A stretch of DNA of 64,000 nt, taken from NCBI GenBank assembly GCA_012212665.1, contig GCA_012212665.1_4517.1; one strand, written 5' to 3'. Positions 658-49,717 of the stretch are shown piece after piece. Every line of letters begins with the position of its first letter. Position 1 is the first letter of the stretch. The translations under genes and the position numbers were made by a program. This DNA is from a phage. The notes under the pieces are model-generated. The model saw only the letters and a program-made list of their open reading frames with translations. It was not told the DNA's origin and ran no database searches.

Positions 658-662
658 TAAAA

Positions 663-676
663 GGGCCTTCGGGCCC
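663..676 (+). other. GC-rich hairpin GGGCC-UUCG-GGCCC between genes 37 and 38
   Basis: Perfect 5-bp stem with UUCG tetraloop directly upstream of the gene 38 Shine-Dalgarno (GGAGG); no U-tract follows. Confidence 0.5.
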
Positions 677-687
677 TGGAGGTTTAT

Positions 688-2172: not shown

Positions 2173-2445
2173 TTAGTTGTTAGAATACATCGCTAAATGA
2201 CGATAAATATTTTCAAAACCTTCATTGAATTCACTAATCAGTGTTTTCTTTTCTTCGGCAGTTAAATTTGTAATTAGTTTTCTGAACGAATTCTGATTTA
2301 GCTGCCGACCATCTTTTTTAATTCCAATCTCATTCAAGAATCCGATGAAATTTGCTCGGTCTTCAACAATATCTTCCCTAGAGAATTTAATCAAAATAGA
2401 AGCAATAGTAATAATTTCACGTACGATTTCAATGTCTTTATTCAT
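2173..2445 (-). CDS. asiA: Anti-sigma-70 factor AsiA
   Basis: 90 aa, near-identical to T4 AsiA (MNK.I..VREIIT.ASILIKFSREDIVE.RANFI.FLNEIG...NEGFE). Confidence 0.9.
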   Translation of the reverse strand: MNKDIEIVREIITIASILIKFSREDIVEDRANFIGFLNEIGIKKDGRQLNQNSFRKLITNLTAEEKKTLISEFNEGFENIYRHLAMYSNN

Positions 2446-4306: not shown

Positions 4307-4939
4307 TCACAGTACGTTAGTTACAAGGGTAATGATTTCTTTGGACACATTAGGGAAGTCAATGTAAGTATATTTACCACCGATTTTAATCTTAACATCA
4401 TTTTCAAGAGAAGTAAACAGCTTTGATTCAGTTTCTGACATGTTGTATGCAAAGATTCTAAGAGCGCCATCTCGTCGAATTTCAATTTGGCGAATGCCTA
4501 GAACTCGTTTAGCGAATCGAACTTCTAAGTTACTACGGTTTTCACCAATTTCTTTAACTTCAACTTTATCTTTAATATTTTCAAAAACAAAGTTCGCTAG
4601 TTCATGCATTTCAGGAGTAACTCCACGTGCTTTTCTGGTGTTACGTTTCTGGAGAAGTTCTGGAGCATTTTCTTGAGCAAATAGGTCTGCAGCTTTTTGG
4701 ATAATATCCATTGCTTCGCCGGTTGCCACAAGTCCATCACCGGATTTTTCGACTAAACCTTTCTTAATCAATACACCAATGTTAGAGTTAACAACTGACG
4801 CATTGTATTCCGCTTCCAGAGCTTCACGGACATTGGCAGCAGTGGTGAAGTTGTTCTTAATGATATAAACCATTATTGCAGCAGTTTTTTCATTCAGAGC
4901 GTTTTCAGAAGCTTTGATGATGTAAGTAACTTTAGACAT
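4307..4939 (-). CDS. motA: Middle-transcription activator MotA
   Basis: 210 aa, N-terminus MSKVTYIIKAS..NEKTA and internal NSNIGVLIKKGLVEKSGDGL match T4 MotA; synteny with gene 52. Confidence 0.9.
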   Translation of the reverse strand: MSKVTYIIKASENALNEKTAAIMVYIIKNNFTTAANVREALEAEYNASVVNSNIGVLIKKGLVEKSGDGLVATGEAMDIIQKAADLFAQENAPELLQKRNTRKARGVTPEMHELANFVFENIKDKVEVKEIGENRSNLEVRFAKRVLGIRQIEIRRDGALRIFAYNMSETESKLFTSLENDVKIKIGGKYTYIDFPNVSKEIITLVTNVL

Positions 4940-5013: not shown

Positions 5014-5052
5014 GTGAGAAAAAAAAATGCACAAAAGGGAGCTTCGGCTCCC
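5014..5052 (-). terminator. Intrinsic terminator downstream of gene 52
   Basis: Minus-strand hairpin GGGAGC-CGAA-GCUCCC followed by UUUUGUGCAUUUUUUUUU. Confidence 0.65.
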
Positions 5053-5128
5053 TAATCATGTTTGTCTAACCAATACAGCCAAATCACTAGTGCAGCTATT
5101 GCACCGAGAAATCCTAAGGCTAGGGCAC

Positions 5129-6454
5129 TCAAAGTGCCTCCAAGTCTTTAGTGTACTCTGTCACAACATCAGTAGACTTCCAATACTCATTTTCTTCTTT
5201 CTTAGCTTTAGCTTCTTCTGCTAGTTTACGTGCTTCGTCAGAAGTGATATGGAAGATGTTAAGACCTACCAATTTATCGATATGTTCTTTATACATTTCG
5301 ATTTGTGCTAGCTCTTCAGTCAAAGCTTTACGAGTCTTGCCTTGAATCACAATTTCGCCACTGATAACTTTTTTGATGAAGTGTGCCTTAGCAAAAGCCA
5401 GTTTAAATGCTTTTTCAGATTCAATGATTTTGTTATCAATACGTTTCTGAACGTAAGTCTTACGGACTTCAACAAAATCTTTGATTAAGTCCACTACGTT
5501 ATCGTAGACCGTTAATTTACCCTTTTCATTAATCACTGTGATGTTTTGTGAACGACGTTCGATGAGACTAAAATCTTTCATGGTTTTTTCATGACGTAGC
5601 TCTTCATCATCAGGAAGCGAGTACTCTTTACGGAACTTCACCTTAAACCCAAAACCGTGTTCACCACAATCATCTTCCCATGAGATTAGACCTTTGTCTT
5701 CCAACGGGTCAAGAACCTTACTCACATACGTTTCACGGTCGAATTTATATGGGATTTCAGTTATCTGCATTTGAGTGCGAGATGTGAACTTATATGTTCC
5801 GTGAATCTCATAACGCCCATCAACTTCATGCACTTCACCGCGGAATTCCGGGAATTCAACTTTTGGTTTAGTGACATTTTTACCTTGAAGAGCTTGTAAT
5901 ACAGCCTTTTTGACCGATTTAAAACTATGAGGCAGAATATTTGTTGCGTAACCGGTTGCAATACCAGAGACACCGTTCAAAAGAACTGTCGGAATAATAG
6001 GAAGATAGAATTTTGGTGGAACGTGTTCTTTATCTTCATGAGCTGGAGCATATTCGGTATCTTTATAGACATTATAGAAATTTTTGCTTACACGAGCAAA
6101 AATATAACGAGATGCTGCAGCTTTTTGGACTGTTCGAGAACCAAAGTTGCCTTGACCATCTAATAGTGGATAGTTGTTATTCCATGTGTTAGCCATCAAT
6201 GCACCTGCATCTTGTGCAGAAGATTCACCATGGTGATAACCTAAATCTGCAACACCGCCTGCAATTGACGCAAGTTTATGAAATTTTTCTTTATTACCAC
6301 GAGCCAAATCTAATGCACGATGAACCACAAAACGTTGAACCGGCTTAAATCCATCAATCATGTTTGGGATTGCACGGTTTTCAACGGTGTACATAGCATA
6401 TGCTAAGGCTTCGTTATCAATAATACTTTTTAGATTACGAGAATTCAATTGCAT
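5129..6454 (-). CDS. 52: DNA topoisomerase II medium subunit gp52 (GyrA-like)
   Basis: 441 aa; topoisomerase II DNA-cleavage core similarity (GFKPVQRF.., LLDGQGNFGS, active-site region); T4 synteny motA-52. Confidence 0.9.
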   Translation of the reverse strand: MQLNSRNLKSIIDNEALAYAMYTVENRAIPNMIDGFKPVQRFVVHRALDLARGNKEKFHKLASIAGGVADLGYHHGESSAQDAGALMANTWNNNYPLLDGQGNFGSRTVQKAAASRYIFARVSKNFYNVYKDTEYAPAHEDKEHVPPKFYLPIIPTVLLNGVSGIATGYATNILPHSFKSVKKAVLQALQGKNVTKPKVEFPEFRGEVHEVDGRYEIHGTYKFTSRTQMQITEIPYKFDRETYVSKVLDPLEDKGLISWEDDCGEHGFGFKVKFRKEYSLPDDEELRHEKTMKDFSLIERRSQNITVINEKGKLTVYDNVVDLIKDFVEVRKTYVQKRIDNKIIESEKAFKLAFAKAHFIKKVISGEIVIQGKTRKALTEELAQIEMYKEHIDKLVGLNIFHITSDEARKLAEEAKAKKEENEYWKSTDVVTEYTKDLEAL

Positions 6455-6458
6455 ATTT

Positions 6459-6596
6459 TCACCATATTAATGAACGAATAACCATTATAACATCTGAAAT
6501 GAAAAGCACTACTTGGATTAGTCCAAACATCACACCGTAGTACAGAATCGTAAACAACAAGAGCCCGAAGGCTCCTGCTAAGATTTTCTTAATCAT
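6459..6596 (-). CDS. Small hydrophobic peptide (about 45 aa)
   Basis: Unannotated ORF below the 60-aa cut-off (MIKKILAGAFGLLLFTILYYGVMFGL...); occupies the T4 ac/stp position between gene 52 and ndd. Confidence 0.3.
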   Translation of the reverse strand: MIKKILAGAFGLLLFTILYYGVMFGLIQVVLFISDVIMVIRSLIW

Positions 6597-6794: not shown

Positions 6795-7241
6795 TTAATA
6801 ACTCTGCAGAATGAATTTGAAATTATCAGCCAGAAGACGGTTCATTTCGGTGAGTGTTTGATATTCTGATGTATGATTGCGAGTGAATGCCAGAGCCAAT
6901 TGTCCTTTACCATAGCCAGTAGTCAGGGGTTTCATGTTCTTAGCTGCAACAAAGATTACATCGTATTCAATATTGTTAGTGCCCATGGTACGGGCGAGTT
7001 GTGAACGGCCTTGACGAATGTGAGAAAGAATTGCATCCAACCCTTGTTTAGAACGTTGACGACCTACAAAGAATCGTGCTGCCACTTGTCGCCAGTCAGA
7101 TGAACCTTTAACAAAGAAGTAAAAACCTTCACGAGAACGAAACTCTTTAGAAACTTCAGAACCGTATTCACCGTTACGAACTACTGCAACAACTTCACCG
7201 CCAACTGCCAGAAGGTCTTTACGAGTTAAATATTTGGACAT
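6795..7241 (-). CDS. ndd: Nucleoid disruption protein Ndd
   Basis: 148 aa; strong similarity to T4 Ndd (GFYF.V....RFYVGNQRSKQG..A.LSHIRQ.RSQLART...[41 protein letters not shown]). Confidence 0.85.
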
Positions 7242-7285
7242 GCTAATTTCCTCAATTGATTAATGTTTTTGTAATCCATGAGAGC

Positions 7286-13500: not shown

Positions 13501-13533
13501 ATTAAAATTAAAATGAAGCTCCTAAAGGAGCTT
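13501..13533 (-). terminator. Terminator-like hairpin downstream of gene 39
   Basis: Minus-strand hairpin AAGCUCC-UUUA-GGAGCUU overlapping the gene 39 stop, followed by a U-rich tract. Confidence 0.45.
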
Positions 13534-15349
13534 AGGACATCCATTCTTTACGAAGTTCTGAATCATCACCCAACAACATTTCAAAGAGTTCTTTCCAATT
13601 TTCAGGAAGTTTAACTACGTCGTACACAGGGTTCTGAATCATTTCACGATACTCTGACTTTTCAAGGGAGCCTAATCCCTTGATGTATCGAATACTATGC
13701 TTAGGCAGTGTATCTTTAACTTCTTCATACTCAGCTACAGTATAAAACCATTTTTGAGTTTTGCCAATTTGTGCAATAATTACAGGTGTTTTAACAAAGC
13801 GAATACGTCCTTGTTCAAACAATTCAGGCCAATTACTAAAGAAAGCAAGCAAAGCCGGATAGATACTTCCAAGACCGTCATGATCGGCATCGGTCATAAT
13901 TGCAATATTACGATAGTTCGTATTCTCTGCCTTTTCACCAAGAATAAGACCTGTGATAGCACAGATATCGAATAACTCTTTGTTCTTCATCATATCAGCA
14001 TATGACATACCCCAGCTATTCATCACCTTACCACGTAATGGGAATCCACCGTGTAGTTCACGGTCACGAACATCAATGAGATATCCAATTGCCGAATCAC
14101 CTTCTGTTAAGAACAATGTCGTATCTGCATCTTTACCACATTGGTTAGCTTTAATATGCTTATGAACCTTAGCTTTAGTTGCCTTTTTAGCTGCTTTAGT
14201 TTCTGCAGCCTTTTCTGCTGCCAATTTACGAGCTAATGCTGCTTCAACAATAGGCATAATCAAGGCTTCGTTTTTAAGAAGTGCCTGGGCAATTTTCTTA
14301 GCATCTAATTGGATATGATTACGAATATCACCATACGTTGACGTTAAACGTTCTTTAGTCTGAGAATCAAAACGCATGTTGCTCATGTCTCGAATAAACA
14401 TCAACATTGTGAGGCATTCTTTAACACGAGCTTTAGTGACTTCAATACCCTTATATTTCTTTTTAATACCTGGCAAAAGATGTTCGCAGATATCATCCAT
14501 TACACATTCAACATGATGACCACCATTTTTAGTATGGATGTTATTCACATAAGTTAAATGACGGAAGCCATCTGGTGATGTTGTGAATGCTATAGAGACT
14601 TTATCATTTTCTTGAATGATGTTATCTTCACCAAATTGTTTAGCAAATCGTTTAAAATTACCATCGACCTTTTTACCATTAAATGTGAACTTGATATCAG
14701 GATAAACGACTGCCAATGTTTGAAGTCGATCTAAAGTAATATCTAAATAAATTTGAGATAAATTATGCTCTTCAAATGAAGTGAAATCAGGAGTGAAGAT
14801 TACTTTAGTGCCTTTACCTTTAGATTTCTTAGAAGACCATGATTTGTTTTCCATTCCGTTTGAACAGTTAACAGTGATTTCATTTTCGCCATCTGACGTG
14901 ATGCCTGTAAACAACGTAGAGAAGATATTAGTTAAACTACTCCCGACGCCGTTCATACCACCAGTCTTGCGTTCAGAGTCATCACCAAAGTTACCACCGG
15001 CCTTTGGAATAGTCCAGGCTGCTACAGGCCCAGGAATTTGTTCACCTGTTTGGTCGGTAACTAAACCTTGAGGAATACCACGTCCGTTATCTTCCACCGA
15101 AACTTGATTATTTTTAATTTGCACATCAATTTTATTTGCAAACTTAAATGATGTACGAATAGCTTCATCAACCGAGTTGTCAATAATCTCATCGATTAAT
15201 TTAACCAGGCCAGGAACATATTCAACTTGTTGATATTTACCAAACAAAAACCGCTCGTGGGCTTCTTTAGCAGAAGAACCAATATACATACCACTACGTT
15301 TCTTAATATGTTCTACATCTGACAATACCTTAATTTCATTTTTAATCAT
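13532..15349 (-). CDS. 39: DNA topoisomerase II large subunit, single fused polypeptide equivalent to T4 gp39 plus gp60
   Basis: 605 aa continuous ORF with GyrB-like ATPase (GHKL) and TOPRIM regions; T4 encodes this as gene 39 (516 aa) plus split gene 60. Confidence 0.9.
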   Translation of the reverse strand: MIKNEIKVLSDVEHIKKRSGMYIGSSAKEAHERFLFGKYQQVEYVPGLVKLIDEIIDNSVDEAIRTSFKFANKIDVQIKNNQVSVEDNGRGIPQGLVTDQTGEQIPGPVAAWTIPKAGGNFGDDSERKTGGMNGVGSSLTNIFSTLFTGITSDGENEITVNCSNGMENKSWSSKKSKGKGTKVIFTPDFTSFEEHNLSQIYLDITLDRLQTLAVVYPDIKFTFNGKKVDGNFKRFAKQFGEDNIIQENDKVSIAFTTSPDGFRHLTYVNNIHTKNGGHHVECVMDDICEHLLPGIKKKYKGIEVTKARVKECLTMLMFIRDMSNMRFDSQTKERLTSTYGDIRNHIQLDAKKIAQALLKNEALIMPIVEAALARKLAAEKAAETKAAKKATKAKVHKHIKANQCGKDADTTLFLTEGDSAIGYLIDVRDRELHGGFPLRGKVMNSWGMSYADMMKNKELFDICAITGLILGEKAENTNYRNIAIMTDADHDGLGSIYPALLAFFSNWPELFEQGRIRFVKTPVIIAQIGKTQKWFYTVAEYEEVKDTLPKHSIRYIKGLGSLEKSEYREMIQNPVYDVVKLPENWKELFEMLLGDDSELRKEWMS

Positions 15350-15371: not shown

Positions 15372-15397
15372 ATTCTATCATCCGAAATCTAAAGCAA
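15372..15397 (-). promoter_or_regulatory. MotA-dependent middle promoter upstream of gene 39
   Basis: Minus strand TTGCTTTAG (MotA box) -12 nt- TAGAAT; same module as at 49498..49522. Confidence 0.6.
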
Positions 15398-15412
15398 AAA
15401 GGGCCGAAGCCC
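15391..15412 (-). terminator. Intrinsic terminator overlapping the MotA box
   Basis: Minus-strand hairpin GGGC-UUCG-GCCC followed by UUUUUUGCUUU, directly after the stop of the upstream ORF. Confidence 0.6.
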
Positions 15413-15835
15413 TTATTTAAATTTAATTTTCTGAAGTGCATCAATTGCAGCCAAACGCCCTTGTTCACTTTTAACCGTAATGACCACATCACCTGATACG
15501 ATCACTGAACCATCAACAAATTCTATAGAGCCTTTTTTGAAATCGACAGCTGTATCTGATTCCGGAACTTCTTCAAAGAATTTAAATTCTGCACCATAAA
15601 TCAGAATATCACCTTGCATACTAATGATTGTACGTCCAGGTCCATCGGTTTCAGCGGCAATCATTGAAACACCGTAGCCAATCATCTCTTCTACAATAAA
15701 ATCTCTTGATAATAAAACTGTATGCAGAGTAGTGTTAAGACGTTTACCAGTTGTATTAAGAATTCTCAAGAAATTATCTTCTTGGCCTTTGATAATACGA
15801 TATTTCTTACCAACTTCAAAACCTTTAAAAGCCAT
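15413..15835 (-). CDS. Hypothetical protein
   Basis: ORF of 140 aa upstream of gene 39. Confidence 0.5.
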   Translation of the reverse strand: MAFKGFEVGKKYRIIKGQEDNFLRILNTTGKRLNTTLHTVLLSRDFIVEEMIGYGVSMIAAETDGPGRTIISMQGDILIYGAEFKFFEEVPESDTAVDFKKGSIEFVDGSVIVSGDVVITVKSEQGRLAAIDALQKIKFK

Positions 15836-21965: not shown

Positions 21966-22039
21966 TCCTTTTTCATAAAATGCTTTAATTTTTTATGTGT
22001 TATAATGGTTCTGAGTTCCATCCGGTTATTCCAATCCAG

Positions 22040-24820: not shown

Positions 24821-24846
24821 CGAAAAAAGGAATCCCGAAGGATTCC
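24821..24846 (-). terminator. Intrinsic terminator downstream of soc
   Basis: Minus-strand hairpin GGAAUCC-UUCG-GGAUUCC followed by UUUUUUCG. Confidence 0.65.
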
Positions 24847-24855
24847 TTAAATTAT

Positions 24856-30440: not shown

Positions 30441-30447
30441 CCCGAAA

Positions 30448-30463
30448 GGAGACCGAAGTCTCC
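30448..30463. terminator. UUCG-tetraloop hairpin downstream of gene 41 (terminator-like, strand ambiguous)
   Basis: GGAGAC-CGAA-GUCUCC; a T-run follows on the plus strand and UUUCGGGG on the minus strand. Confidence 0.4.
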
Positions 30464-30469
30464 TTTTTA

Positions 30470-31921: not shown

Positions 31922-32263
31922 TTAAAAGAATTTAAATTTTTTCTTGGTTCGTTCATTAAAAGCTTGTTGTACCTGCATTGTAACACATTTTTCAACATGT
32001 GGTGCAAGTTCTGCTTTTCTGTCCTGGTCAAGAACTGCAAAGTCCATTACGATTTTACCATCAACCCAATCTAGTTTTGTAATATAGACTATATGATGGG
32101 AACCATCTTCAAGTGTAATCAGAATCTCTTGAATGACATTTTCCATTGCTGAACGGATAATTTTAAGAGATTCATTAAACACTCGTTCTTTGCGAATGTC
32201 TTCCCCTTCCGAAGAAGGGGATTCATCAACGATTTCTAGATTTAAATCATCGAGATTATTCAT
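31922..32263 (-). CDS. 40: Head vertex assembly protein gp40
   Basis: About 113 aa from internal Met MNNLDDLNLEIVDES; position between 41 and uvsX. Confidence 0.55.
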   Translation of the reverse strand: MNNLDDLNLEIVDESPSSEGEDIRKERVFNESLKIIRSAMENVIQEILITLEDGSHHIVYITKLDWVDGKIVMDFAVLDQDRKAELAPHVEKCVTMQVQQAFNERTKKKFKFF

Positions 32264-39451: not shown

Positions 39452-40083
39452 TGTTCGCCTCGTAACATGGCACCTAGTGCACCACCAGGGTGGAACTTAA
39501 GGAAGTCATTAGAGGTAAATCCACGTTCAGACGAAAGGTTGATAGCAAACGTATCGATAAGCGCTAACAACAATGTAGTGGACATGGTCGGAGCCAGAGA
39601 ATTCTCATCAACCTCTACCGCGATGCCTGTACAGAACGTATAATCAAAAAGAGCTTCGTATTCTTGCGGAATGTCAGGGTTACAATGTAACAGAATCTGT
39701 TTAACCTGAGGACGAATCATACGAAGATGTTTAGCAACACCTATCATTTCTTCAGTCTTACCAGAACGACTGATGTGAACTAATACATCATTAGGCGCAA
39801 TGAATCCTGCATCACCGTGAGAATAATGCCCGGTGTTCAAATACATGCTAGGAATACCTAGTGAAGCAAAAGTCTCGGAAGCTTTAGTTGCGATATTAGC
39901 GTTCTTACCAACACCTGTAATAATTACTCGGCTTTCATAATTACTCAGTCCAGGGCGACGAAGAGTTTCAAGAATAGCATTATATCGGGCAGAGTTTTGA
40001 CTAATTACTTTAGCCATAGTGGCAAGAGATGAAGCTTGTTTTACGATTGCGTCAATAGCGATAGTGATTGGTGTAGTTTTCAT
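39448..40083 (-). CDS. SIS-domain sugar-phosphate isomerase, arabinose-5-phosphate isomerase (KdsD/GutQ)-like
   Basis: 211 aa; motifs ITGVGKNANIA, HGDAG, SRSGKTEE, APTMSTT, FHPGGALG align with the KdsD SIS domain; no CBS domains. Confidence 0.75.
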   Translation of the reverse strand: MKTTPITIAIDAIVKQASSLATMAKVISQNSARYNAILETLRRPGLSNYESRVIITGVGKNANIATKASETFASLGIPSMYLNTGHYSHGDAGFIAPNDVLVHISRSGKTEEMIGVAKHLRMIRPQVKQILLHCNPDIPQEYEALFDYTFCTGIAVEVDENSLAPTMSTTLLLALIDTFAINLSSERGFTSNDFLKFHPGGALGAMLRGEQ

Positions 40084-40123: not shown

Positions 40124-42835
40124 TCAAAAATCGAACATATCGAACAGAGATGCTTTCTTCTCGTAATCGAGTTTCGCTGCTGATGTGAATCCTTCAAGTG
40201 GTTTAATAAATGTCTTCTCAAGGAGAACAGTGTAGTCCATCCAATGAAGTACGTCGTCTTTAATTAAATCTGTGATTTCAGTACCAGAAGGCCATGCGAT
40301 ACATTTATCACCGAATGGGTTTCCTTCACGTAAAGGCAGAACATATACTTTTTCACCTTCTACAACTTGTGGAGCATCAATATTACCTTTGATAGCTCTG
40401 TTATATGTCAGAATTCCACGAATATGGAACGGGCATTTAGGACCAGGGAATCCACCAACGTCGTATTTAGCAATGTTATTCGCAGAAGATACTGACGCGA
40501 TGCTAATATAATTCAATTGACGGAATTCTTTTTCAAACTCTTTAAAATATTCTTGTAATGATTCTTCACCTTCCTGAAGCATACGACGAATACATTCCTT
40601 AAGAGCTTTCTGTACTGCTTTAGGAGTCGAAGATTTCTGTGTTTCGAGACCCATGATTTTGAGTTTAGGCTCAGCGTAACGAGTACCTTCCATATCCCAC
40701 ACGTTTAATGCATAACGTTTCTTACCTGTCCAAAATCCGCCAATACCTTTAGAACCAAGCGGAGGACCAGCGATAGCTTCTCGGTCCATGAACATTAAGT
40801 GTTGTTTATTGTTCATGTATTCACACATTTCACAGAAACCTCTATCAATAGCTGGTTCCATACGTTCACGTGCAAACTTATCTAAGAAGTCTACCCAATG
40901 GTTGGTATCACGGAATTTAGATTCACCAACCTTATCGATAATTTTATCAGCAGATACGTAAATAGAGTCTGTATCACCATAAAGAACGAAAGCTTCACCT
41001 TCTGTACCGCAAACTTCGTTCAGATATTCATTAACTTTACGTTCAATCCACTGTAAAGCCATTTGCCCGAATGTTGTGATTGCAGTTGCATTACGCAAAT
41101 CATAATAACGGAACCAAACGTTTCCAAGTGCACCATAAAGCGAGTTGATGAGCAATTTACGGTTAATCTGTGCAGTCATACCTGCAACTTCAGTACGTTG
41201 AGCTCTAAACAACATTTCATTAAGAGATTTAGCAGACAACTTTTTAATCTTTTCTTTAATCTCATCACTGAAGTCAAAACGATAATCAACGTCTAATGGT
41301 TCATCAACAGAAAGATTAGGATTATGTAAGGCTTCTTTAATTATTTCACCATTACGTTGAGCTGCAAGCATGTAACCTTTATGTTCTTTACGTTGATTAA
41401 AGACCTTAGTGATTTCAGTTGGAACTACACCATCACGGTCTTTATAATACATCATGCCGTTAGGAGAGCAACTGTACACATCTGAAGGACGTTCAGCGAT
41501 TGCGTTAATATAATCATGCAATGGAGCTACTTTAAACGTTCCTGCTATTGTTTCTGGGCTAATATTCACTTGGCGAATAATACTTGGATACAGAGATGTA
41601 AGGTCGAAACTCATTACATATTTGTATCGATTTGGAATAGGTTCCTTAACAAAAGCGCCAGGATAAGGTTGAACCGGGTGAGAACGACCTTGTGGAATCA
41701 CCTTGTTCTGCTCTTTAAGGCTATTAAAAATAATAGCATCCCATGTTTTAATTGGACTGAACACGGATTGAATCTGAATTTTAGCATAATAACCCATGTC
41801 CAAACTCAAGTTAATGAACTGGCGTTTAGCATCAATTTGCAATACACGATATACGTCGATGATGTTATAAGAAATATATCGTTGATGATTGCTTTCACGA
41901 AGTTTAGAAATAGGACCGTCATATTTCAGTTTACCAACGTTCAATTCAAATTCTGAAATGTAATCCAGAGAATATGACGGTTGGTTCGTGAAAGAGAACT
42001 TTTTGTAAAGGTCAATATAATCAAGAACAGAGATACCAAACAATGTAATGATTTCACGAGAACCATACATGTTTTCGATAACTTTAACACGAGTTTTACG
42101 ATGTGGTGATAAACGTTTCGCAGTAGATTCGCCAAAAATATTCTTGATTCGGTTATACACATATGGAATATCAAATGACTCAACGTTCCATCCAGTCAAA
42201 ATGACAGGAGTTTTCTGTTGCCAGAAGTTGAGATATTCCATCAACAATTCTTTTTCATTATCGAATGGCATATAAATGATTTTATCGATAATTTCGGATG
42301 GAACTTCATCACCACCTTGTTCTTGAAGCTTAGCCGCAATTTCGATAGACCATTCTTCCACATTACCGTATGGAGAATTCAATAGATCAAATACGTAGAA
42401 CCTGTCGTCAATTGAGTCATAATGGGTGATAGCATCAATCGGATGTTTTGCTTGTGACGGCTCAGGGAACCCATCCGGAGATGTTACTTCGATGTCGAAG
42501 TTAGCCACACGAATTTTTGTATGGTCGTATTTGATTTCATAGTTATAAGTGTCAGACAAATACGCCAATTTGAAATCGTCCATGCCAAGTGCTTCAAGTC
42601 CGATATCTTCCATGCGTTTAATCCATTGGGAGGCATCACGCATATTAGCGAACAACTTACGAGTACACGGTTTACCGTAGATATCGAAATATTTCGTAGC
42701 CTGGCTTTCTGGACAATGAGCAAACAGTGATGGTTTATATTCTACTTCACGAGTACGTTCACGACCATTAGAATCGATGTAACGTTCAAAAATTGAATCA
42801 CCAATCTGTTCAACCGTTAAGTAAAATTCTTTCAT
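40124..42835 (-). CDS. 43: DNA polymerase gp43 (family B)
   Basis: 903 aa; exonuclease and polymerase motifs (FDIE, YGDTDS, K.KK.YA); T4 synteny regA-43. Confidence 0.95.
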   Translation of the reverse strand: MKEFYLTVEQIGDSIFERYIDSNGRERTREVEYKPSLFAHCPESQATKYFDIYGKPCTRKLFANMRDASQWIKRMEDIGLEALGMDDFKLAYLSDTYNYEIKYDHTKIRVANFDIEVTSPDGFPEPSQAKHPIDAITHYDSIDDRFYVFDLLNSPYGNVEEWSIEIAAKLQEQGGDEVPSEIIDKIIYMPFDNEKELLMEYLNFWQQKTPVILTGWNVESFDIPYVYNRIKNIFGESTAKRLSPHRKTRVKVIENMYGSREIITLFGISVLDYIDLYKKFSFTNQPSYSLDYISEFELNVGKLKYDGPISKLRESNHQRYISYNIIDVYRVLQIDAKRQFINLSLDMGYYAKIQIQSVFSPIKTWDAIIFNSLKEQNKVIPQGRSHPVQPYPGAFVKEPIPNRYKYVMSFDLTSLYPSIIRQVNISPETIAGTFKVAPLHDYINAIAERPSDVYSCSPNGMMYYKDRDGVVPTEITKVFNQRKEHKGYMLAAQRNGEIIKEALHNPNLSVDEPLDVDYRFDFSDEIKEKIKKLSAKSLNEMLFRAQRTEVAGMTAQINRKLLINSLYGALGNVWFRYYDLRNATAITTFGQMALQWIERKVNEYLNEVCGTEGEAFVLYGDTDSIYVSADKIIDKVGESKFRDTNHWVDFLDKFARERMEPAIDRGFCEMCEYMNNKQHLMFMDREAIAGPPLGSKGIGGFWTGKKRYALNVWDMEGTRYAEPKLKIMGLETQKSSTPKAVQKALKECIRRMLQEGEESLQEYFKEFEKEFRQLNYISIASVSSANNIAKYDVGGFPGPKCPFHIRGILTYNRAIKGNIDAPQVVEGEKVYVLPLREGNPFGDKCIAWPSGTEITDLIKDDVLHWMDYTVLLEKTFIKPLEGFTSAAKLDYEKKASLFDMFDF

Positions 42836-42889
42836 TTAATTTCCTTTAGACGAGTTATTGTCTTTTGTTTGTTGATGAACTTATTATAC

Positions 42890-42907
42890 TCCAAATGGGA
42901 CCGAAGT
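42890..42907 (-). promoter_or_regulatory. Hairpin upstream of gene 43 (candidate translational operator)
   Basis: Minus-strand AUGGGAC-UUCG-GUCCCAU, about 55 nt upstream of the gene 43 ATG, between regA and 43. Confidence 0.35.
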
Positions 42908-42916
42908 CCCATTGCT

Positions 42917-43285
42917 TTAATTACCAATTGTATATTTTGCTTTCAAAGTCCAGTCATCTTTCTGTTTAAAAGAGATAACACGGAAGTTATTAGTCAGGCC
43001 AAACAGATCTTCACGAGCAGAGTCTTCAATAACAATCAATCCCCAGTCTTCAAGCAACTGAGCAATCGAATCACGTCGCTGATAGTCTTCACCGTCAATA
43101 TCAACCTGACGTCCGTCCATACGCAGCATTTCTTTAAAGTGGACGATGTAATATTTACCTTGCTTTTGGAGGATATGACAGGACTGATAAAGAACTTTAT
43201 CCTTGTTATTAGCGATGCCCATACGGGTTAGAGTCTCTTTGACTTTCAGAAAATCTTCGGGGTTCTTCAATTTAATTTCGATCAT
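42917..43285 (-). CDS. regA: Translational repressor RegA
   Basis: About 122 aa from MIEIKLKNPEDFLKVKETLTRMGIANNKDKVLYQSCHILQK; matches T4 RegA. Confidence 0.85.
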   Translation of the reverse strand: MIEIKLKNPEDFLKVKETLTRMGIANNKDKVLYQSCHILQKQGKYYIVHFKEMLRMDGRQVDIDGEDYQRRDSIAQLLEDWGLIVIEDSAREDLFGLTNNFRVISFKQKDDWTLKAKYTIGN

Positions 43286-48229: not shown

Positions 48230-48458
48230 TACACGCTTCAGCCATTTTAAGAATAGAGCCAGGAGTATCGTTGTCCATTATATTAAAGCTAAATTCAATA
48301 GCCCAGTCGGTACAGACATGAACGGCTTTAACTTCATTGCCTTCAACGCGTAACGGCTCAATCCAATACTTGATAGTGTTCTCGAATCCATCATCATCTT
48401 TAACGTCTATTTCAACTTCAAGCCCAAGCCCAGCATTGTTAAATTCATCTAAAGTCAT
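48201..48458 (-). CDS. Hypothetical acidic protein
   Basis: ORF of 85 aa. Confidence 0.45.
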   Translation of the reverse strand: MTLDEFNNAGLGLEVEIDVKDDDGFENTIKYWIEPLRVEGNEVKAVHVCTDWAIEFSFNIMDNDTPGSILKMAEACIEDAYNNED

Positions 48459-49474
48459 TGTGTTGCCTCAATATAAAGTTCGTTGGAATATTTGACCAGC
48501 GCTTCTCTGTCTTCGTCTGAGATATCTGGAATCGCGTCAATATATTCTTTAATGATATCTTGAAGTGATTTAATCTCGATTTCCTGGTCGTCATCAGATT
48601 CAACACTGTTATCAACTTTAGAAACCATACGAAGAGAGTGAACTACTTTTTCAAGTTCAGATTCAAACTTAGTCAACTCTGAATCAATTTCTGATACTAT
48701 AACACGTACGGCTAGATTAGTATAATCAGAATAATTGATTTTGCCTTTAAATGGATAAGTGATTCGTCGATGCCATGTCGTTTCATTAGGAATAAATTCC
48801 ATACGTTCAACATCAGTGTCAAATACCCAGAATCCACGTGGGTCGTTCTCGTCACCTGCAGTAAGGGTCCATGGTGTCCCAATATATTTGACGTTAGCAG
48901 CTTCAGAGATTGTGTGGAAGTGGCCGGACCAGACTTGTTTATAGGTCTTTAAGAAATCAGGTTCAAGCCCATGAGACTTCATTCCTTTATAGAAATAAAA
49001 GCCATTCAGTTCCCAGTGCCCAACACAATACGCAGCAGAAGAAGTCTTGATATGCTCTAAGATTTCACCTGTATTTTCTTCACACATCCATGGAACGATA
49101 TCAATCAGACATCCATCAAAATCTACAGTAGTTGGATGTTCGTAAATAGTAAAGTTTTCAAATTGAGTTAACAATTCAGAAACAGTGTTAGGTGTTATTG
49201 TATTCTTAAACGCCATGTCATGGTTTCCTATCGTGACATGAACGTGAATGCCTGCTTTAGAAATCATATCAACGATTTCACGATTGAATTCCATTGTACG
49301 ATGTGTTATTGCTTTACGGACGTCGAACCAATCACCGTACTGAATCCAAGTTTTAATCCCGTGTTTCTTAGAGTATTCAATTGCTTGACGAATACCATCA
49401 CGTTGAATATCTTGAACCCATGGGTCATCTTGTTTGACTCCGATATGGAAGTCTCCTAAGTGCAAAATTTTCAT
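48455..49474 (-). CDS. 47: Recombination nuclease subunit gp47 (Mre11/SbcD-like phosphoesterase)
   Basis: 339 aa; calcineurin-like motifs (HLGDFH, GNHD, GHFH). Confidence 0.9.
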   Translation of the reverse strand: MKILHLGDFHIGVKQDDPWVQDIQRDGIRQAIEYSKKHGIKTWIQYGDWFDVRKAITHRTMEFNREIVDMISKAGIHVHVTIGNHDMAFKNTITPNTVSELLTQFENFTIYEHPTTVDFDGCLIDIVPWMCEENTGEILEHIKTSSAAYCVGHWELNGFYFYKGMKSHGLEPDFLKTYKQVWSGHFHTISEAANVKYIGTPWTLTAGDENDPRGFWVFDTDVERMEFIPNETTWHRRITYPFKGKINYSDYTNLAVRVIVSEIDSELTKFESELEKVVHSLRMVSKVDNSVESDDDQEIEIKSLQDIIKEYIDAIPDISDEDREALVKYSNELYIEATQ

Positions 49475-49497: not shown

Positions 49498-49522
49498 ATT
49501 CTATCATCCGTTTATAAAGCAA
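49498..49522 (-). promoter_or_regulatory. MotA-dependent middle promoter upstream of gene 47
   Basis: Minus strand TTGCTTTAT (MotA box) -11 nt- TAGAAT; GGATGATAGAAT identical to the gene 39 middle promoter. Confidence 0.6.
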
Positions 49523-49544
49523 AAAAGGAACTCCGAAGAGTTCC
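49513..49544 (-). terminator. Intrinsic terminator overlapping the MotA box
   Basis: Minus-strand hairpin GGAACUC-UUCG-GAGUUCC followed by UUUUUUGCUUU. Confidence 0.6.
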
Positions 49545-49717
49545 TATCCACATAGTACACCGTACAGAGGCTCATTTGGACTTTTAAATCGAATGGGCTT
49601 GTACGTAATAGTTCCTTCGGCTTTAGCTTTATCATAAGACTCTTTAAAACGTCTCATTCTTTCTGCTTTGCCTTTACGGATTTTATCGAAATTTTCAGAA
49701 GTCGGGATGTTCATCAT
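49544..49717 (-). CDS. Small hypothetical basic protein (57 aa)
   Basis: Unannotated ORF with GAGAGGTG Shine-Dalgarno-like sequence; its stop abuts the terminator hairpin. Confidence 0.3.
   Translation of the reverse strand: MMNIPTSENFDKIRKGKAERMRRFKESYDKAKAEGTITYKPIRFKSPNEPLYGVLCG

Follow-up and report, generated by a model that had tools for sequence, protein, structure and literature searches.

Middle promoters of bacteriophage T4 follow the consensus (a/t)3TGCTTtA, 12±1 bp, TAnnnT, in which the MotA box lies near −30 and a TGn extension of the −10 element is frequent (Hinton 2010, PMC2988021). Two of them, P39 (start 5349) and P47 (start 36576), are known to be MotA-dependent (Guild et al. 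1988 and others, tabulated in Hinton 2010, PMC2988021). In RB69, the middle promoter Pm:5538 (5498-5538) overlaps a terminator predicted by TransTerm at 5535-5546 (Nolan et al. 2006, PMC1524935, Additional files 4 and 6), and Pm:40046 (40007-40046) overlaps another at 40044-40061 (Nolan et al. 2006, PMC1524935). Promoter and terminator elements were listed separately for that genome, and the overlap was not discussed (Nolan et al. 2006, PMC1524935). Elements that join a stem-loop to a promoter have also been described as classes of their own. A PeSL consists of a stem-loop terminator and an early promoter, and PeSLs recombine (Arbiol et al. 2010, PMC2839356; Comeau et al. 2014, PMC4122927). 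A PmSL, described in vibriophage nt-1, combines a stem-loop with a TGCTT Mot box and a −10 element (Comeau et al. 2014, PMC4122927). The C(UUCG)G stem-loop is an extra-stable hairpin form that was recognised first in the mRNAs of T4 (Tuerk et al. 1988, as described in Hall 2015, PMC4371310).

The window analysed here is the whole 64,000-nt stretch of a phage contig (GCA_012212665.1_4517.1, assembly GCA_012212665.1; 36% G+C). It derives from a Mosigvirus of the RB69/ATK47 type, with 99.8-100% identity to PECP20 and ATK47 over the two 1-kb regions searched. A first-pass annotation, made from the sequence, had proposed that the minus strand carries a stem-UUCG-stem hairpin followed by a MotA box and a −10 element at two places. 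Direct reading of the sequence bears this out, with site 1 spanning 15414..15372 and site 2 spanning 49545..49498, both on the minus strand. The two sites share the same order of parts: a stop codon, a C(UUCG)G hairpin, a run of five or six T nucleotides, the box TTTTGCTTTA, 12 or 11 nt, and an extended −10 element, TGA-TAGAAT.

Site 1 reads TAA-(AA)GGGC-TTCG-GCCC(TT)-TTTTTGCTTTA-GATTTCGGATGA-TAGAAT on the minus strand. Its hairpin (AAGGGC-UUCG-GCCCUU, 15399..15414, minus strand) has a GGGC/GCCC core at 15412..15401 and begins within the TAA (15415..15413) that ends the upstream ORF, a 140-aa homologue of RB69ORF005c (15413..15835, minus strand) that has no Pfam match and whose transcripts would end at this hairpin. 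The T5 run after the stem (15400..15396, minus strand) supplies with its last nucleotides the first T nucleotides of the MotA box at 15390..15399 (minus strand), which was identified from the sequence with the consensus of PMC2988021. A 12-nt spacer separates the box from the −10 region, where TGA-TAGAAT occupies 15372..15380 and its hexamer 15377..15372 (minus strand). A Shine-Dalgarno sequence lies between this element and the ATG at 15349 of the gene that the site serves, gene 39 (13532..15349, minus strand), which encodes the 605-aa large subunit of topoisomerase II with GyrB-type ATPase domains.

Site 2 reads TAG-GAACTC-TTCG-GAGTTCC-TTTTTTGCTTTA-TAAACGGATGA-TAGAAT on the minus strand. Its hairpin (AGGAACUC-UUCG-GAGUUCCU, 49526..49545, minus strand) overlaps the TAG stop codon (49546..49544) of a 57-aa a-gt.2 homologue of the DUF5486 family (49544..49717, minus strand), with which the upstream transcription unit ends. 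A T6 run (49526..49521, minus strand) is overlapped by the MotA box at 49515..49524 (minus strand), so that at both sites the T-run continues into the box, as the first-pass annotation had noted. The spacer is 11 nt in this case, and TGA-TAGAAT lies at 49498..49506 with its hexamer at 49503..49498 (minus strand). Downstream, with its ATG at 49474, is gene 47 (48455..49474, minus strand), which encodes a 339-aa Mre11/SbcD-like nuclease subunit of the metallophosphoesterase type and is the first member of the 47-46.2-46.1-46 cluster. The names given earlier to genes 39 and 47 are correct. The −10 regions were likewise rightly described as identical, and the identity includes the extended −10 TGn. 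The string common to both sites is the 13-nt CGGATGATAGAAT, and the 12-mer GGATGATAGAAT occurs exactly only at these two sites in a search of the window. The stem sequences, GGGC and GGAACUC, are unrelated.

The window also encodes the factors needed to read a MotA box. The activator expected to act on both boxes is a 210-aa MotA (4307..4939, minus strand) that matches Pfam MotA_activ (2.4e-39) and MotCF, and its co-activator, the anti-sigma factor AsiA, is a 90-aa protein (2173..2445, minus strand) that matches Pfam AsiA (6.7e-33). Both sites carry the box TTTTGCTTTA and the TGA-TAGAAT element at spacings of 12 and 11 nt. Given the consensus match, the presence of motA and asiA in the genome, and counterparts in T4 that are the mapped MotA-dependent promoters P39 and P47, the proposed assignment of both sites to the MotA/AsiA class of middle promoters is strongly supported by comparison. 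It is safe to annotate them as the middle promoters P39 and P47, both with a predicted terminator upstream.

The T4 promoters resemble those in the window in position, directly upstream of gene 39 and of the gene 47 cluster, and in the order of their parts, namely a stop codon, a C(UUCG)G hairpin, a box, 12 nt and a −10 element, in a genome that likewise encodes the MotA and AsiA activators. T4 reads AAGGCC-UUCG-GGCCUU-tAGCTTTA-N12-TATAAT before gene 39 and AGGGC-UUCG-GCCCU-ttAGCTTTA-N12-TATAAT before 47.1/47, and the −10 hexamers of both promoters lie 7 nt upstream of the published starts. The two phages differ in detail. The T4 box is tAGCTTTA with a −10 element TATAAT, whereas the window has tTGCTTTA with TGA-TAGAAT, and the U-runs of T4 (UUUAGCUUUA) are weaker than those of the window. 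In addition, T4 P47 follows a-gt and precedes the small ORF 47.1, whereas site 2 follows a-gt.2 and directly precedes gene 47. Judged by its upstream flank, site 2 is the counterpart of another T4 promoter, PmobB (38682), with which it shares the 3′ end of a-gt.2, the hairpin and then TTGCTTTATAAA, while its downstream gene is that of T4 P47. RB69, which belongs to the same genus as the window phage, has a P39 site identical to that of the window over the 116 nt compared. Its P47 site differs at two positions in 116 nt, one of which makes the −10 element TAAAAT instead of TAGAAT.

This arrangement is rare among T4 middle promoters. We examined 56 of the 58 that are listed (all except P52 and Pndd.3), and a strong hairpin (−9.7 to −11.5 kcal/mol, all with UUCG loops) that ends at −31 to −33 is present only at P39, P47 and PmobB (38682). 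Similarly, sites 1 and 2 are the only MotA-box candidates on the minus strand of the window with a strong hairpin abutting the box. A different arrangement is seen at T4 P43, where a hairpin lies inside the promoter. Its counterpart in the window (42894..42913, minus strand), located upstream of gene 43 (40124..42835), also has the hairpin within the promoter and consists of the regA stop codon, AATGGGAC-UUCG-GUCCCAUU, 5 nt and TATAAT (approximately 42888..42883). The loop region GACTTCG lies 13 nt before this −10 element, at the place of a MotA box.

Comparative sequence analysis was extended to loci fetched from IMG/VR (48 for gene 39 and 44 for gene 47). The order of stop codon, hairpin, T-run, TGCTTT box, approximately 12 nt and TAnnAT is kept in 20 of 23 gene-39 loci whose gp39 identity is 63% or higher, as it is in about 25 gene-47 loci. 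The stems vary widely among these loci (GGGC, GGCC, GGAGC, GGAGCC, AGAGCC, GGGAUCC, GGAACUC, GGGCC, GGGAC and GGAAGC). The window hairpins share the UUCG loop and C-G closing pair of the hairpins in T4 mRNAs, whereas other lineages carry CUAGU, UACG, UAAC, UUAG or GUA loops at the same position, which indicates that the identity of the UUCG tetraloop is not essential. A plain MAFFT alignment of the gene-39 modules left the stems out of register because their lengths differ, and it was replaced by a 20-nt alignment anchored on the predicted loop of each sequence. With 12 distinct hairpins aligned in this way, 97.6% of cells are paired, a percentage that the anchoring inflates, and double changes occur in six of the seven pairs. 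The covariation score is 0.775 versus 0.284 in shuffled alignments, and none of 500 shuffles reached the observed value. The main message of this comparison is that the hairpin is retained beside the box while its stem sequence turns over by compensatory substitutions.

Two relatives depart from the common arrangement. Phage RB43, which lacks MotA, keeps a hairpin (ACCCC-GAAA-GGGGU) and a U-run at the same junction, before a fused 60plus39 gene (NC_007023, approximately 7186..7250; L103 in our collection). There the hairpin is followed by CTATATAAT, a different promoter-like sequence that is not a MotA-type promoter. The retention of a hairpin in a phage without MotA shows that it has a role of its own, independent of the MotA box. 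In a T-even relative (IMG/VR contig 2974736276; L061), the region 80 to 20 nt upstream of gene 47 contains a MotA box and TATAAT inside the 3′ end of a-gt, and a hairpin (AGCCCGGA-CC-UCCGGGCU) that comes after the promoter rather than before it, and so would be carried by the middle transcript at its 5′ end.

Each of the two sites in the window is likely to serve as a composite transcription boundary, where the 3′ hairpin of an early unit, with its run of five or six U nucleotides, is followed without a gap by a MotA/AsiA middle promoter for an essential gene of replication or recombination. On the same strand, early-type promoters (GTTTACA-N17-TATAAT and related sequences) are located upstream of site 1, at approximately 18823 and 18265, and of site 2, at approximately 52705, 52280 and 51613. 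Transcripts from such promoters would fold the hairpin, and part of them would terminate 7-9 nt past the stem, within the MotA box. The hairpin might additionally protect the 3′ ends of the early RNAs of the small upstream ORFs. After remodelling of sigma70 region 4 by AsiA, MotA would bind TTTTGCTTTA at about −30, and polymerase would start near A15365 at site 1, a position predicted from the 7-nt spacing of T4 P39, and near A49491 at site 2, giving leaders of approximately 16-17 nt. What presumably lets the hairpin lie against the box is that middle promoters make no use of DNA further upstream, since the ADP-ribosylated alpha-CTD no longer touches it (PMC2988021). The W-rich 5′ third of the box would then double as the U-tract. 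A terminator at the edge of the promoter might also shield it from occlusion by incoming polymerases.

That early read-through ends at these hairpins, as the first-pass annotation had predicted, is supported by several forms of prediction in addition to the conserved pairing. Each site carries the sequence signature of an intrinsic terminator, with a G+C-rich stem-loop and a U-rich tract directly after it, and both hairpins pass a terminator-like scan. ARNold terminators are annotated on both hairpins in the GenBank record of ATK47, and the orthologous RB69 terminators (5535-5546 for hairpin 1 and 40044-40061 for hairpin 2) have a TransTerm score of 100. Analogous PeSL stem-loops terminate transcription in reporter fusions (Arbiol et al. 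2010, PMC2839356). Termination at both hairpins is probably partial, because T4 middle genes are also expressed from early transcripts that read through (PMC2988021). It may also be inefficient because the U-run is short (5-6 U and then GCUUUA), and that of T4 is weaker still. Our literature search found no Term-seq or dRNA-seq study of T4, and a T4 DksA RNA-seq paper and a post-transcriptional review contain nothing on the P39 and P47 sites.

The hairpins might instead act mainly as stabilisers of RNA 3′ ends or as processing barriers that keep 3′ exonucleases away from the upstream mRNA once read-through and cleavage have occurred, rather than as terminators, in which case their contact with the promoter would merely reflect very tight intergenic spacing. 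Such a role is consistent with the poor U-tracts of the T4 orthologues and with the read-through transcripts that reach T4 middle genes. It also fits the unusual stability of C(UUCG)G hairpins and their frequent occurrence in T4 intercistronic regions (PMC4371310), as well as the seven further C(UUCG)G hairpins in the window, several of which lack U-runs. However, in the window phage and in most lineages the stem is directly followed by 4-6 T nucleotides, and three independent predictors call both hairpins terminators. We therefore consider a mainly stabilising function possible but doubtful, although the two roles are not exclusive.

Stable UUCG hairpins are found at other locations in the window, including 5036..5053, 662..677, 6555..6580 and 32202..32221. 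The first of these corresponds by position (in extrapolated coordinates) to the RB69 TransTerm terminator 'motA<--52', and an early-type promoter is present at approximately 5006, just before motA. Two others, at 30445..30466 and 24827..24848 (both on the minus strand), are strong C(UUCG)G hairpins with 9-bp stems that are followed after 4-14 nt by an early-type promoter and hence are PeSL-like. The promoter after the first hairpin reads GTTTACA-N17-TATGAT. That after the second reads GTTTACA ... TAAGAT, and the second hairpin also has a U-run.

The earlier description of the module as duplicated holds in that it occurs twice in the window. It does not hold as a recent duplication, since the P39 and P47 modules each have their own orthologues in other genera, and both copies are thus old. 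The string CGGATGA-TAAAAT is widespread at P47 across lineages, whereas its presence at P39 is specific to Mosigvirus. Because RB69 P47 reads TAAAAT, the identity of the two −10 regions is a recent, lineage-specific coincidence of a single base. We also considered general concerted evolution of P39 and P47 within a genome, an idea hinted at by the pairing of tAGCTTTA and TATAAT at both sites in T4 and of tTGCTTTA and TAGAAT at both sites in the window. This was rejected as a rule, since other lineages pair different boxes, spacers and −10 elements, and it is also contradicted by the TAAAAT of RB69 P47.

Structurally, the modules in the window have the anatomy of a PmSL, with a stem-loop, a Mot box and −10 element, a Shine-Dalgarno sequence and a start codon at both sites. 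They share with PeSLs and PmSLs the placement of the stem-loop just upstream of the promoter, followed by the Shine-Dalgarno sequence and the start codon, and neighbouring genes that vary between relatives. PeSLs differ in carrying early sigma70 promoters and in occurring as many similar copies in hyperplastic regions, and their recombination into mini-circles has been shown. In contrast, the modules described here are present in two copies (three in T4), lie beside core genes and have unrelated stems.

Gene content changes at both modules. In T4, a cassette of mobB and a-gt lies between two modules, PmobB (38682) and P47 (36576) (NC_000866), whereas Mosigvirus has a single module that combines the a-gt.2 flank of PmobB with the gene-47 side of P47. 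Among the lineages, the layouts a-gt.2/module/47, a-gt.2/module/47.1-47, a-gt/module/47.1-47 and a-gt/module/47 are all found, and the place before the P39 module is taken by 39.1, ORF005c or some other small ORF. In this comparison, which covered the two module junctions, insertions and replacements of genes appear to cluster on the side where the hairpin lies. Such lineage-specific changes at the module are as the PeSL linker model predicts.

These observations raise the possibility that the modules are primarily recombination linkers at the level of DNA (PmSL cassettes as Arbiol and Comeau understand them), whose repeated sequence of hairpin and promoter would mediate the insertion, deletion and exchange of neighbouring genes, in which case the likeness of the two copies would come from exchanges. 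PeSL and PmSL are published concepts, and a linker function would agree with an upstream neighbour that differs by lineage next to a module and a downstream core gene that are retained, with the bracketing of mobB and a-gt by two modules in T4 where Mosigvirus has one, and with the restriction of this build to P39, P47 and PmobB among the 56 T4 middle promoters. However, the present copies share exact runs of only 8-13 nt, which is short for homologous recombination, and the stems of the two copies in the window are unrelated. Moreover, insertions and deletions would gather at any intergenic boundary beside a core gene, and mobB is a homing endonuclease gene, which provides another route for cassette mobility. 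On balance, we find it unlikely that linkage is the primary function. A broader proposal can be put forward only tentatively, namely that the modules might be middle-promoter counterparts of the PeSL linkers, serving T-even-type phages as places to gain, lose or swap genes beside core replication genes. The single module before gene 47 in Mosigvirus and the pair in T4 would then be the same insertion site, empty in the former and filled in the latter, and the 13-nt identity between P39 and P47 would be a trace of exchange.

Whether the modules act as transcription boundaries or as linkers, they stand out from the background of the window. Both have stems of 4-8 bp with four G-C pairs, followed by T5 or T6 and then GCTTT. 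The core hairpin energies are −9.3 kcal/mol for site 1 and −12.0 kcal/mol for site 2, and folding in a context of 41-46 nt gave −11.1 (z −1.8) and −13.9 (z −3.8), respectively. The pattern TGCTTTA-N10-13-TANNNT occurs 11 times in the window versus 1.1 times expected. The composite of a UUCG hairpin ending at most 8 nt ahead of the box and a −10 element occurs twice, versus no occurrence in 500 first-order Markov simulations. Earlier composite criteria (four or five loop-proximal pairs, at least three of them G-C) missed site 2 because its G-C pairs are located at the base of the stem. No Rfam family matched the window at gathering thresholds. Matches to TGCTTTA-N-TANNNT on the plus strand (21981..22006, 42913..42938 and others) oppose the early and middle genes and are probably not promoters.

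That a hairpin and promoter-like words merely fell together in A+T-rich DNA, by chance and without function, has a vanishingly small probability. In its favour, short motifs are frequent in DNA of 36% G+C, and of the 11 matches several, the plus-strand ones for instance, probably do not mark promoters. Against it stand the composite count, the conservation of the composite at orthologous positions (in T4, in RB69 and in many further lineages) and the mapping of the T4 orthologues as promoters, and the last two already refute it.

Both sites are thus real, conserved and functional, and the interpretation given in the first-pass annotation is essentially right. Their elements are already known from T4 P39 and P47, from the RB69 lists of Nolan et al. 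2006 and from the PmSL type of Comeau et al. 2014. As a discovery the finding matters little, and what it illustrates is that a reading made free of annotation recovers real regulatory architecture. The modules provide a testable case for two questions, namely whether a terminator at the upstream edge of a promoter guards against read-through, and whether modules of a hairpin and a box guide the exchange of cassettes. For the T4-like phages, the value of these sites is modest and comparative: the junction between hairpin and box is conserved across genera with compensatory changes in the stem, it represents a rare build found at three of 56 T4 middle promoters, and it coincides with changes in gene content.
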